From Chloroflexota bacterium (GTDB lineage Bacteria > Chloroflexota > Anaerolineae > Anaerolineales > UBA11579), in NCBI GenBank assembly GCA_018662365.1, contig JABJGH010000030.1:2270-66269 (forward strand): a DNA stretch of 64,000 bases, read 5' to 3'. The position numbers were made by a program, and so were the translations under genes. Of this stretch, positions 1-5,100 are shown piece by piece. A model generated the notes under the pieces. The model was not told where the DNA came from. It saw only the letters and a program-made list of their open reading frames with translations, and made no database searches. How positions within the stretch are numbered: the stretch's first letter is position 1; each line of letters opens with the position of its first letter.

Positions 1-738
1 CAGGTGTTACTGCCCGCCATTGAAGATATCCCTCTCCTTGACGTCAGTTATTTAACCGGTGAAGCCTTCCATTTGGTGGAAGTAATCACAGTAAATATCC
101 TTTGGCTATTAGTCATTTTAGTCGCTACCTACTTCTTGCTTCTTGATTGGACAAAGATTAAAAGATTTTTTACTAAATTGACCCCAGAAGAATATCAATC
201 TGATGCTCAGAGATTATATCGAGAGGTGGTTACTATTTGGAATAGTTATCTTCGGGGCAACCTGATTTTGATGTTTTTCACGGCGATAATTTTTATGGTT
301 GCCTGGTCGATCATAGGATTACCTGCCGGCATATTGCTGGGCTTAATGATGGGTTTATTGAAAATTATCCCTGATGTGGGGCCAATGTTTGCAGCGGGGG
401 CTTCAGTCTTAGTTGCATTTATAGAAGGGTCAACAGTTTTAGATATTCCAAATATGTGGTTCGCTGTGCTAGTTTTTGTTGTATATTTTGTTTTGATTAA
501 TATTATTACGATTTGGTTGCGGTCGGTTCTCTTTGGAAGAAGTGTGCATATGCACTCGGGTTTAGTTTTTATATTGATCATGCTCGCCGTTATTATCCAA
601 GGGATATTGGGAGCTGTGATCGTAATTCCGTTTGTTGCTTCTTCCTTTATTATTCTGCAATATGTTTTACGAAAGATTTACAAACAACCTGGTTTTCCTG
701 AGGAAATGGATGTGGTTGAAGAACTATTGAGTGATTAG
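1..738 (+). CDS. AI-2E family (PerM-like) transporter, 5'-truncated by window edge
   Basis: Hydrophobic multi-TM ORF with YLRG-N-L, IP-x-VGP and G-x-LG-A-VI-x-IP motifs typical of AI-2E/PerM permeases; frame open from the window start. Confidence 0.8.
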   Translation, partial: QVLLPAIEDIPLLDVSYLTGEAFHLVEVITVNILWLLVILVATYFLLLDWTKIKRFFTKLTPEEYQSDAQRLYREVVTIWNSYLRGNLILMFFTAIIFMVAWSIIGLPAGILLGLMMGLLKIIPDVGPMFAAGASVLVAFIEGSTVLDIPNMWFAVLVFVVYFVLINIITIWLRSVLFGRSVHMHSGLVFILIMLAVIIQGILGAVIVIPFVASSFIILQYVLRKIYKQPGFPEEMDVVEELLSD

Positions 739-768
739 GAAATAAGAATTATTTGTCTGTAATTTTAG

Positions 769-801
769 TCCCCTGATGAATCATTATCGGGGGATTTTTT
801 T
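769..801 (+). terminator. Intrinsic terminator
   Basis: TCCCCTGAT...ATCGGGGGA stem followed by a T run after the AI-2E gene. Confidence 0.7.
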
Positions 802-877: not shown

Positions 878-1366
878 ATGTTCTATTTTATAAATCAAAA
901 CTCTTATATATTAATTGCTGCATTTCTTTGGGCGGGCGTATCAGCCATGGCTCTCAAAAAGATGCCATCCCCCGCAAATTATTTCCTTATTATTGGGCTG
1001 GCGATTCTTTTAATTATCTTATTCAATTTCGTGCGACCCAAGCAGGCAAATCTCTCTAACGAAATGCCAATTGAAAATCAGATCGGATTGGGTCAGGTAG
1101 TTTTACTCGAAATGCAATCCCCCTATTGACTTGGATGTATCGCAATAGAGCCTGTCGTGAACAGGTTAGAAACTGAACTAGGAAATGAGATGTTGATCTT
1201 ACGGGTGGACATTCAAAGTGCCAATGGAAAAGAAATCTCCAAACTATATGCAAGCCGAATCACTCCTACTTTTATTTTGTTTGATCCCCAGGGAGAGGAA
1301 ATTTGGCGAAGCATTGGCAACTTAGATCCCGAAAAGGTTCGGGACTCTCTGAAAGACTATAATTAA
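878..1366 (+). CDS. Membrane-anchored thioredoxin-like selenoprotein (UxxC), 162 aa, UGA at 1127-1129 read as Sec
   Basis: ORFs 878-1129 and 1157-1366 share a frame and are separated only by TGA; read-through gives LLEMQSPY-U-LGC-IAIEPVVNRLE...TPTFILFD (thioredoxin fold, cis-Pro TP); two N-terminal hydrophobic helices. Confidence 0.88.
1149..1167 (+). promoter_or_regulatory. Candidate bacterial SECIS hairpin
   Basis: AGCCTGT-CGTGA-ACAGGTT stem-loop; loop starts 26 nt after the UGA and contains GU. Confidence 0.6.
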
Positions 1367-1385: not shown

Positions 1386-2279
1386 ATGAAAAAACAACTG
1401 AAGCAGATTTTCCTTTTTGTTTTTCTCCTGCTTGCTTTGATCATCACCATTTTAACAATCATCGCAAAACCAGCGGCGGATCATGTCTTCTTTTCCCAGT
1501 TTGACGATGATCAATATCCTTTGGTGATCGCACATGCGGGCTCTAAACTATACCCAACAGATACGCTATATGCACTAGAACAATATGCAAATATGGGCGT
1601 GGATATTTTGGAAATGGACATTCATCTCACCAAAGATGAGCATATCATTTTGATCCATGATGATACTGTAGATCGTACGACAAATGGCGAAGGTGATGTT
1701 CGGGAGATGACCCTTGCTGAGGTAAAAGAACTGGATGCTGGATATAAGTGGACAGATGATGAAGGGAGTACCTTTCCCTTCCGGGGTCAAGGGATCACGA
1801 TACCCACATTAGAAGAGGTTTTCAACACTTTCCCGGGCTATCCAATGATTGTGGAGATCAAACAAGAAAGCCCCTCTATGGGAATTGTATTATGCGAGTT
1901 ATTGCGCAAACATAATATGCAAGAAAAAGTGATGGTACCTTCATTTAGCGATGTTGCCATGACGGAGTTTCGGGAAGCGTGCCCGGAAACGTCGACTGCC
2001 GCGAGCACAAATGAAGTAAAAGATTTTGTTTATCGAAATTTTGCTTTTCTTGCAGGAACGATCAGTCCAAAATATCAGGCTTTACAGGTTCCCGAATCAC
2101 GGGATGGCATCCCAATTGTTACAAAAATACTTTTATGGGCTGCCCGGTTACAAAATGTAGAAGTACATATTTGGACGATCAATGACCCCGAAGATATGCA
2201 AAGATTTATTGATATGGGCGTTGATGGAATAATGACAGATAGGACTGACTTATTATTAGAAGTGCTGGGAAGAAACTAG
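1386..2279 (+). CDS. Glycerophosphodiester phosphodiesterase (GDPD family), N-terminal anchor
   Basis: IAHAG, LEMD, HD-x-x-VDRTTNG, EIK, WTIND and GIMTD motifs. Confidence 0.9.
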   Translation: MKKQLKQIFLFVFLLLALIITILTIIAKPAADHVFFSQFDDDQYPLVIAHAGSKLYPTDTLYALEQYANMGVDILEMDIHLTKDEHIILIHDDTVDRTTNGEGDVREMTLAEVKELDAGYKWTDDEGSTFPFRGQGITIPTLEEVFNTFPGYPMIVEIKQESPSMGIVLCELLRKHNMQEKVMVPSFSDVAMTEFREACPETSTAASTNEVKDFVYRNFAFLAGTISPKYQALQVPESRDGIPIVTKILLWAARLQNVEVHIWTINDPEDMQRFIDMGVDGIMTDRTDLLLEVLGRN

Positions 2280-2286
2280 CATATTT

Positions 2287-3787: not shown

Positions 3788-4846
3788 TTAAGAATTCCCT
3801 TTTTCCATTTTCTTGTTGTATTTTTCAGCTTTGCGACGAATGCGGTTCATTACACCTGTCAGCCCCATTGCCTTTTTCATCGCAAACAATGTCTGTTTCG
3901 TTTCCTCTCGGGCTTTGAGCGTCCCTTGGACTAAAATATCCTCCACCCGCCCGGTAACATCATAAATCTCCCGACGTTCTCTCATTGGATCAAGCAAATT
4001 ATTAATTGCGAGCGATAATTTATCTTTAACTTCCACATCCCCTACTTTTCCAGCACGATAACGAGTTTTCAGATCTTCGACTTCTTCTTTATTCGGATTG
4101 AAAGCATCATGGTAATCAAAAACCGGGTTGCCTTCCACAGTTCCGGGTACATCTGCACTCACTCGGTTAGGATCTGTATACATCCCCTTGACCTTCTTCA
4201 CAACCTCATCATTTGTGTCACTAAGATAAATGGCATTATTAAGGCTTTTGCTCATCTTGGCATTGTTATCTGTACCAACAAGAGTGGGCACTTCACCAAC
4301 CATGCCATCTGGCACTGGCAATGTTTCACCGTATAGGTGATTAAACCGGCGAGCGATTTCTCTAGTAACTTCAACGTGGGCAATATTATCTTTGCCGACA
4401 GGCACCAGATCTCCTCTCACACAGAGAATATCAGCGGCTTGAAGTACTGGATAGCCCAATAAGGCCAATGGCATTTCGATATTGGCATCTCTGGCCATAT
4501 CTTTCAAACTTGGTACTCGCTCTAAACGGGCAACACTGACCAAACTTTGAAAGAGGGTGTACATTTCGTTGATCTCTGGGATACCCGATTGCAAATAAAA
4601 GGTGACGATCTCAGGGTCGATTCCCGCTGCCAATTGATCTAGGACCATATCATGGGCGTTCTTGTCTACGAGGGCGATATGTTCAGGCTGGTTCTTGGTG
4701 GTAAGCATATGCAAATCAGCCACCAACAAAAAGGTTTCATATTGATGCTGGAGCCGGACGCGATTGTTGAGAGAGCCAACTAAATGGCCAAGGTGCAATT
4801 TCCCCGTGGGTCGATCCCCTGTGAGCAATCTTTTCTTCTCTGTCAT
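3788..4846 (-). CDS. trpS: Tryptophan--tRNA ligase
   Basis: [13 protein letters not shown] (HIGH), [16 protein letters not shown] and KMSKS motifs. Confidence 0.96.
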
Positions 4847-5100
4847 TTGACCTCTGAAATATATTTGCGTAGTGCTGCAGTCACTTCACCTTCTTCAGCA
4901 TGGCGACTTAGTTGCTTCTTTGAAAAGATTAAGTCTCCGTTCACACTAAACTCAAATCTACCTCCATCTGAAGGAACTAAGTTAAAACTTTCGATTTTTA
5001 TTTCTATGTCTTTATCAGCAAGAATCTCTTTCATCGTGCCAACGGCACGGTCGGTATAGTTTCAAGCTGCACAGTAAACTAGTTCGATGTTATATAGCAT
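4843..5100 (-). CDS. Rdx (SelT/SelW/SelH) family selenoprotein, CxxU, 85 aa, UGA at 5064-5062 read as Sec
   Basis: ATG at 5100 with upstream GGAG; reads [27 protein letters not shown]...[17 protein letters not shown] (Rdx signature GxFEx-V-G-LIFSK); the ORF track only caught the part after the UGA. Confidence 0.92.
5035..5049 (-). promoter_or_regulatory. Candidate bacterial SECIS hairpin
   Basis: Minus-strand CGTGCC-GTT-GGCACG perfect 6-bp stem starting 12 nt after the UGA; loop begins with GU. Confidence 0.65.

Follow-up and report, generated by a model that had tools for sequence, protein, structure and literature searches.

In the accounts given in PMC9312934 and PMC13188914, the selenocysteine (Sec, U) form of thioredoxin (Trx, PF00085, UxxC) is an experimentally verified prokaryotic selenoprotein, for which both cite the work of Kim et al. 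2015 on Treponema denticola; the main texts of the two papers make no mention of 'Chloroflex' or 'transmembrane'. By the rule used in these papers, which combines the domain with the Sec motif, the protein described here falls under the same entry (Trx, PF00085, UxxC). Thioredoxin selenoproteins had already been counted in bacterial genomes in 2006 (PMC1794560), and surveys of marine DNA report 11 'Thioredoxin' selenoprotein sequences from the Sargasso Sea (PMC1088965) and the group 'Trx-like 1' (COG0526, UxxC), with 321 selenoprotein sequences in 42 GOS samples (PMC2398784). Among curated thioredoxin-like selenoprotein families, PMC13188914 lists SaoT (NF040730), HUIPC-motif (NF047660), and VPGUxxT (NF041383). 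BSepDB gathers members of reported families by homology from more than 64,000 genomes (PMC13326102) and may already include the Chloroflexota genes discussed below. Our literature search, made over main texts, found no account of a membrane-anchored thioredoxin selenoprotein from Chloroflexota or Anaerolineae.

We analysed a window of 64,000 nucleotides from a Chloroflexota bacterium (assembly GCA_018662365.1, contig JABJGH010000030.1); all positions given here refer to this whole stretch. Our analysis of sequence, homologs, and predicted structure indicates, with a probability that we put at about 0.92, that positions 878 to 1366 encode a single selenoprotein, a membrane-anchored thioredoxin-like redox protein of 162 residues in which the UGA at 1127-1129 would be read as selenocysteine.

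The read-through frame, its fold and its homologs

The frame contains 162 codons and only one in-frame TGA (Table 1). Genetic code table 11 divides it into an ORF of 83 aa (878-1129) and an ORF of 69 aa (1157-1366). The assignment of the start to the ATG at 878 is backed by a conserved N-terminus, with N6 present in at least 90% of 18 orthologs and S9 invariant. When the TGA is read through, the motif S-P-Y-U84-L-G-C87 is obtained, and alignments to solved thioredoxins place U84 at the first Cys of WCGPC and Pro130 at the conserved thioredoxin Pro. The residues that are invariant in the 18 orthologs are S9, L76, S81, U/C84, C87, T129, P130, F132, and G139.

Table 1. Positions of the features of the locus and of its flanking genes in the window.
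Feature	Position (nt)	Residues	Strand	Basis or detail
Upstream AI-2E-family transporter ORF	4-738			PF01594
Terminator-like hairpin	767-796		+	13-pair stem followed by a T-run, past the transporter gene
Whole candidate selenoprotein gene	878-1366	162 aa	+	ATG 878, Sec-TGA 1127-1129, stop TAA 1364-1366
Predicted membrane anchor, whole	902-1033		+	helix 1, short K/R-rich turn, helix 2
Predicted membrane anchor, helix 1	902-961	9-28	+	AlphaFold model; hydrophobic segments and charge counts, 18 orthologs
Predicted membrane anchor, helix 2	971-1033	32-52	+	AlphaFold model; hydrophobic segments and charge counts, 18 orthologs
Thioredoxin-fold domain	1070-1360	65-161	+	PF00085, Foldseek, PDB sequence matches
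UGA, proposed selenocysteine, attacking residue of U-L-G-C	1127-1129	U84	+	TGA/Cys column; thioredoxin alignment
Codon of the resolving Cys	1136-1138	Cys87	+
Candidate bacterial SECIS hairpin inside the coding sequence	1149-1167		+	stem 1149-1155/1161-1167, loop CGUGA 1156-1160
Cis-proline loop of the thioredoxin fold	1262-1267	Thr129-Pro130	+	invariant in 18 orthologs; PDB alignment
Downstream glycerophosphodiester phosphodiesterase (GDPD) gene	1386-2279		+	PF03009, E 4.1e-39
Weaker terminator-like hairpin	2262-2282			overlapping with the GDPD 3' end

An AlphaFold2 model computed from an 18-row alignment (pLDDT 90.7, pTM 0.82) predicts helices at residues 9-28 and 32-52, followed by a strand (74-80), a helix (85-104), a strand (105-111), a helix (115-124), two further strands (131-135 and 141-146), and a C-terminal helix (151-161). 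The predicted structure is a thioredoxin fold that includes the Pro loop and whose redox motif caps the N-terminus of the first long helix: U84 occupies the N-cap, and Cys87 follows a turn further on. T129-P130 was assigned as the cis-Pro by position and alignment. A Foldseek search against the PDB gave thioredoxins as best matches (E 1.5e-07 and weaker), with target TM-scores of 0.66-0.81 among the first ten rows. The initial annotation had described a lone TGA splitting two in-frame ORFs exactly at the first Cys of a CxxC, a resolving Cys after the Sec (U-L-G-C), a fold running on to the cis-Pro (TP), and, taken together, a 162-aa Sec redoxin with two TM helices; the frame, the alignments, and the model bear out each of these points.

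Family models place the protein in the thioredoxin domain family and in none of the narrower curated families. Residues 73-158 match PF00085 (Thioredoxin) at E 7.6e-07, with 29.5 bits against a gathering cut-off of 23.5, and the protein thus belongs to this Pfam family. The NCBIfam thioredoxin equivalog TIGR01068 (TrxA) scores 33.1 bits against a cut-off of 96.8, and WCGPC is absent, which places the protein outside that equivalog. It also stands outside the TlpA/ResA/DsbE group, with no match to the Redoxin or AhpC-TSA Pfam domains at E values up to 0.01, 12.5 bits for TIGR00385 (DsbE; cut-off 123.15), and 20.4 bits for PF13098 (cut-off 27). The NCBIfam selenoprotein models NF040730, NF047660, and NF041383 gave no match at E values up to 1, and no curated NCBIfam model reaches its cut-off for this protein.

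A search for related loci with the single window protein yielded only 2 loci. A six-frame search in which stops were read through, made in 61 related genomes, found full-length relatives, and 18 loci were translated. A TGA occupies exactly the same column in 14 of these 18 order-level loci, and the remaining four have Cys there, in the motifs SPYCLAC, SEYCVGC, SDYCAGC, and SDYCAAC. When 301 genomes sampled from the class were searched with a profile, 121 gave matches at E values up to 1e-15; the matched places number 137, of which by hand count 108 contain a single TGA and 29 contain no TGA, the column itself having been checked at the loci whose sequences were retrieved. In a further set of 32 loci (L035-L066), drawn from the single-protein and the profile searches, which takes in the window gene again and one duplicate, the first UxxC position is U in 26 and Cys in 6. 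The non-redundant loci (n = 48) comprise 39 Sec (TGA) and 9 Cys forms, which is the Sec/Cys pairing at an in-frame UGA expected of a bacterial selenoprotein with SelB/SECIS-dependent UGA recoding. In a sample of the whole phylum, 40 of 301 genomes matched at E values up to 1e-20, 25 of them from other classes, and 33 of the 45 matched places carry one TGA (again a hand count). The named relatives are Chloroflexota MAGs, and NCBI labels the N-terminal fragment of a genome from the same family 'Anaerolineales bacterium'; the tallies take in one unpublished genome (G393), on which no claim rests.

At the column in question, the homologs examined thus have either TGA or Cys, and a natural Trp, which would have spoken against the Sec reading, was seen in none of them. 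The public protein P0033, which has Cys at the Sec column, is at least 90% identical to the N-terminal fragment of one ortholog (L013). A family tree made by a quick search over 92 columns is poorly resolved, good support being limited to 6 of its 45 inner branches. It implies 6 changes between Sec and Cys, whereas the well-supported branches by themselves require no more than 1.

The hairpin that follows the TGA has a 7-bp stem and a 5-nt loop with G in second position followed by U, and the spacing from UGA to loop is 26 nt; its coordinates agree with the 7-bp hairpin that the initial annotation had placed 19-38 nt past the TGA. In the bSECIS model quoted in PMC13188914, the apical loop measures 3-9 nt and the upper stem 4-16 bp, the first two loop positions contain G, as a rule with G or U next to it, the UGA stands 16-37 nt from the loop, and the MFE is at most -7.5 kcal/mol; the hairpin lies within all four constraints as quoted there. 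Folded alone, its 23 nt reach -7.9 kcal/mol (z -2.9), a value equalled by 3 of 200 shuffles. For the 64 nt that begin with the TGA, folding is no stronger than in shuffled sequence (z 0.07), and the folding energy of this longer stretch is therefore not taken as evidence. A search of Rfam with positions 800-1500 returned no matching family; its two hits were snoRNA-like, below their gathering scores, and due to chance.

Covariation was assessed in 14 Sec orthologs, whose first 60 nt from the TGA onward were aligned without gaps. The hairpin is paired in 96.9% of 98 cells, and three of its seven pairs change on both sides (A-U/G-C 7:7; C-G/U-A; A-U/G-C/U-A), giving 14 such cells. Its covariation score was matched by none of 500 shuffles, and sliding the 3' partner by 1-3 columns lowered the pairing to 11-48%. 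In the four Cys orthologs the same columns are paired in only 53.6% of cells, and most Sec loci of the class-wide sample show the same hairpin past their TGA. Among the compensatory changes are some that alter an amino acid on one side (Gly to Arg here) and are synonymous on the other, indicating that RNA structure constrains the coding sequence. It is this comparative evidence, the TGA/Cys column together with the covarying hairpin, that is decisive and that takes the Sec reading beyond chance.

Gene neighbourhood, membrane orientation and redox role

The terminator-like hairpin past the transporter gene suggests that the redoxin gene begins a new transcription unit. The GDPD protein encoded downstream has a hydrophobic N-terminus and a stop codon at 2277-2279. 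The distance of 19 nt between the two genes, given in the initial annotation, is confirmed by the redoxin stop and the GDPD start. No terminator-like site was found between the redoxin and GDPD genes. Given the 19-nt gap, the lack of an intervening terminator-like site, and the presence of flanking ones before the redoxin gene and at the end of the GDPD gene, it is plausible that both genes would lie in the same transcript.

None of the other loci examined showed the redoxin paired with a GDPD gene, and an analysis of the neighbourhoods of the 48 loci found no neighbour shared with this genome. In 12 of the 48 loci, and these 12 come from six families, the next gene downstream on the same strand encodes a small class-I SAM-dependent methyltransferase; at 3 more loci such a gene is nearby and divergent. 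This methyltransferase has no specific NCBIfam match (best 51 bits against a cut-off of 180), and its ortholog in the present genome is unlinked, on contig C42. The linkage was set aside as a clue to function.

The orientation of the protein in the membrane was approached through its charges. The mean number of K+R in the 18 orthologs is 2.7 in the turn between the helices and 0.3 in the N-tail, and the 15 residues past helix 2 hold on average 1.6 K+R and 1.9 D+E. The window protein itself has 2 K/R in the turn and 2 K/R past helix 2, and with equal numbers on either side of this helix the call of topology leans on the orthologs. Positively charged loops face the cytoplasm (the positive-inside rule), which would put the K/R-rich turn on the cytoplasmic side and both N-tail and redox domain outside, and we consider this orientation fairly likely. 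More distant members of the class, from other orders, match only from helix 2 onward and have a positively charged short N-tail, one helix, and an acidic linker; these single-helix relatives look like N-in/C-out anchors, which agrees with an outward-facing redox domain.

The alternative that deserves most weight is the opposite orientation (N-in, turn-out, C-in), in which a membrane-tethered thioredoxin would face the cytoplasm and be recycled by thioredoxin reductase. It is compatible with the nearest matches in sequence and fold, which are cytoplasmic-type thioredoxins and not redoxins of the TlpA/ResA/DsbE type, with the nil charge difference across helix 2 in the window protein, and with the methyltransferase gene that follows in 12 of 48 loci, whose product is presumably cytoplasmic. 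The ortholog means for turn and N-tail, the net acidic linker past helix 2, and the N-in/C-out appearance of the single-helix relatives argue against it, as does the unlinked position of the methyltransferase in this genome, and we therefore regard a cytoplasmic redox domain as rather unlikely, though well worth keeping in mind.

In the mechanism that we propose, the mRNA hairpin would recruit SelB carrying Sec-tRNA(Sec), and the UGA would not be read as a stop, selenocysteine being inserted as residue 84. The two-helix hairpin would anchor the protein in the cytoplasmic membrane, with the thioredoxin-fold domain behind it. The U84 selenolate would attack a substrate disulfide, Cys87 would resolve the mixed intermediate, and the resulting selenenylsulfide would be re-reduced by a partner. 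With selenocysteine at a CxxC site the redox potential is lower, and reductase chemistry is favoured. A role as reductant is preferred here because of this chemistry and the thioredoxin-type fold, and we give roughly even odds that the protein acts in this way and is fed through the membrane by the CcdA/DsbD-type protein of the genome.

The genome does encode a CcdA/DsbD_TM protein (71 bits), and its gene is followed by a TlpA/ResA-like redoxin of its own, with WCAPC, a finding that we count against feeding of the selenoprotein by CcdA. A VKOR-family gene (89.5 bits), too, counts against the reductant, and would serve an outer-face, DsbA-like oxidant that is re-oxidised by the VKOR homolog; DsbB was not found in the genome, which is 93.95% complete. 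Such an oxidant is improbable in our view, given that the model shows a thioredoxin fold without the inserted helical domain of DsbA, that the best matches are thioredoxins, that Sec in CxxC favours reductase chemistry, and that no redoxin is linked to the VKOR locus over about 1.5 kb in each direction. The presence of CcdA and VKOR and the absence of DsbB do not by themselves settle the choice between reductant and oxidant.

A broader and distinctly speculative reading, to which we attach little credence, would see the window gene as the local copy of a phylum-wide system of outward-facing Sec-thioredoxins, with Sec as the usual form. Its original partner would be the SAM methyltransferase, in an undescribed pathway of redox plus methylation, and in this marine lineage it would have been re-paired with an exported glycerophosphodiesterase. 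If true, the redox-plus-methylation pathway would handle, for example, chalcogen or thiol compounds at the membrane.

The UGA codon in the genome, in independent data and in public records

The genome (93.95% complete, 66 contigs) has the machinery for Sec decoding that the initial annotation had named as a check. SelA (436 bits), SelB (wing domain, 67 bits), and SelD (364 bits, with a single in-frame TGA of its own) are encoded, and aragorn predicted a tRNA-Sec (selC) with anticodon tca, so that selA, selB, selD, and selC are all present. Among 1967 frames in this genome that run from stop to stop over at least 200 codons, 324 end in TGA. The same codon closes the ORF itself in 8 of the 13 Sec orthologs other than the window gene and in 3 of the 4 Cys orthologs. 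TGA is an ordinary stop elsewhere, and only the hairpin-followed TGA is predicted to be read through.

The stretch was found in many seawater metagenome runs, and the contigs of four of them were aligned to it. A contig from a DNA run that is not flagged as a possible source (X7) covers 700-1162 with 0 differences, and a 158-nt contig from a metatranscriptome library (X19) covers 1045-1202, including the TGA and the hairpin, likewise with 0 differences. A sequencing error at this codon had been raised initially as a way in which the Sec reading could fail, and both the independent DNA contig and the RNA-library contig keep the TGA unchanged. Run X8 has no contig across 1088-1221, a gap that carries no weight either way, and the RNA library of run X18 has contigs over 700-843 and 1686-1950 only. 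Contigs from RNA libraries by themselves prove neither transcription nor co-transcription, and in the runs examined none of them bridges the junction of redoxin and GDPD.

In public gene calls the two halves are kept as separate proteins, just as the initial annotation had anticipated for standard annotation. By exact look-up, the 83-aa N-terminal fragment is a stand-alone protein on 59 contigs; the C-terminal fragment is likewise filed separately, at 69 aa in three sequences that differ slightly (64 contigs for the commonest) and at 58 aa in two forms, on 12 and 2 contigs. Four orthologs also have their N-terminal fragments on file as proteins in their own right, one under the name 'hypothetical protein'. 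A 162-aa public entry (P0028) has W at position 84 and is otherwise identical to the window protein. It comes from only 4 contigs, each of at most 1115 bases, and appears to be the output of a gene caller using a table in which TGA is Trp; the aligned contigs read TGA, not TGG, at codon 84.

These records bear on a very improbable reading, in which the TGA is a true stop and the locus a pseudogene, two separate small genes, or the product of an assembly or sequencing error. The two ORFs obtained with table 11 and the halves filed separately on 59 and 64 contigs fit it, and the gap in run X8, which proves nothing, could be added to them. It is already contradicted by the data, since 39 of the 48 loci, drawn from many families, share the TGA column and have conserved sequence to either side of it, the thioredoxin domain spans the codon (strand 74-80 before it, helix from residue 85 after it), the hairpin covaries in the TGA forms only, and an independent contig has the identical TGA. 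Least probable of all, and also contradicted already, is decoding of the TGA as Trp or Gly through a changed genetic code or plain read-through, for which P0028 could be cited; it is opposed by the restriction of that entry to four short contigs that fit a TGA=Trp gene-calling table, by the frames and ortholog ORFs that end in TGA, by Cys and not Trp in the TGA-less homologs, and by the full Sec machinery in the genome.

Public protein sets record the gene as a membrane peptide of 83 aa and a fragment of 58 or 69 aa, as if these were unrelated, and also in a version with Trp at the active site; the correction recovers from them a redox enzyme. The family is common, being found in 121 of the 301 class genomes and in 25 genomes of other classes, mostly in the Sec form, and the mis-call therefore recurs widely. 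In this way some of the use that Chloroflexota abundant in the environment make of selenium goes unnoticed. Our understanding of Sec decoding and of thioredoxins is unchanged by these results, and their main value lies in the correction of the annotation.

Comparison with described thioredoxin systems

The window protein resembles the described Sec thioredoxin in matching PF00085 above the cut-off, in having a UxxC motif with Sec as the predicted attacking residue, in its thioredoxin fold with a cis-Pro, and in the position of the candidate SECIS just past the UGA. It differs from it in the two-helix membrane anchor, with a redox domain that probably faces outward, in its active site S-P-Y-U-L-G-C, which is not of the W-C/U-G-P-C type, and in scoring far below the cut-off of the NCBIfam equivalog; the T. 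denticola protein was compared by description only.

With the marine groups 'Trx-like 1' and 'Thioredoxin', the window protein shares the origin in seawater, a thioredoxin-type domain, and UxxC. This comparison, too, is by description only, as the surveys (PMC2398784 and PMC1088965) class reads by domain and motif, and the term 'transmembrane' has 0 occurrences in the texts as available to us.

The likeness to redoxins of the TlpA/ResA/DsbE type lies in a thioredoxin-fold domain that is predicted to be tethered at the outer face, and in the presence of CcdA in the genome. Unlike these redoxins, the window protein has no match to Redoxin or AhpC-TSA, remains below the cut-offs of DsbE and PF13098, and has as its predicted anchor a helical hairpin and not one helix or a lipid. 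The class of UxxC thioredoxin selenoproteins is well known, and what our findings add to it is a membrane-anchored clade that probably faces outward.

Predicted selenoprotein genes of the window and its genome

Besides the membrane-anchored U-L-G-C redoxin gene, the window contains a second predicted split selenoprotein gene, which belongs to the already known SelW/Rdx family. An in-frame TGA lies at 5062-5064, the gene's own stop at 4843-4845 is likewise TGA, and the ORF listing under Table 11, in which TGA is read as stop, retains only a 63-aa C-terminal piece; the product obtained with read-through matches PF10262 (E 3.5e-13). The selenophosphate synthetase SelD of the same genome is probably itself a selenoprotein because its own gene holds one in-frame TGA, as is the case in many Sec users.

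Among public proteins, one entry (P0028) carries Trp at the Sec position and is otherwise identical to the product of the redoxin gene. None of the contigs from which it derives is longer than 1115 bases, and the entry is probably the output of a gene-calling table in which TGA encodes Trp.

Locations of the features discussed
Feature	Location	Strand	Details
Putative split SelW/Rdx-family selenoprotein gene	window 4843-5100	-	85 residues, CxxU motif
SelD gene	contig C52:21463-22398 of the window's genome, locus L003	-	364 bits
CcdA/DsbD-type gene	L067 1480-2394		locus L067 is contig C46:16562-20200 of the window's genome
Thioredoxin-domain protein	L064:1925-2506	-	193 aa; PF00085, E 3.9e-30 (strong); no TGA
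Methyltransferase directly downstream of redoxin gene	L009, L014, L016-L018, L020, L022, L039-L041, L043, L046		
Methyltransferase divergent from redoxin gene	L055, L061, L064		

Redoxin gene neighbourhoods in related genomes

A gene encoding a class-I SAM-dependent methyltransferase of about 185 aa accompanies the Sec or Cys redoxin gene at 15 of the 48 non-redundant loci, and this pairing is spread over several families and orders. None of the curated family models compared with the methyltransferase fits it, the CpaM and TehB models being among the weak matches. In the window's own genome, the ortholog (43% identity) is located on another contig, C42, unlinked to the redoxin gene.

Other arrangements were also found. 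Five genomes of family f110, which represents another class of the phylum (G431, G480, G516, G534, and G559), have two neighbouring copies of the redoxin gene, approximately 160-320 bases apart and each counted as having one in-frame TGA. At L064, the locus of a single-helix relative, the Sec redoxin gene is closely preceded by the thioredoxin-domain gene, which has the same orientation.

The CcdA/DsbD-type locus

In the window's genome, the CcdA/DsbD-type gene is directly followed by a gene for a TlpA/ResA-like redoxin of 165 aa, which has a WCAPC site and whose N-terminus resembles that of a lipoprotein. The third gene in order encodes a protein with an N-terminal, glutaredoxin-like CxxC start. 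Together, these genes look like a conventional outer-face reducing pathway.
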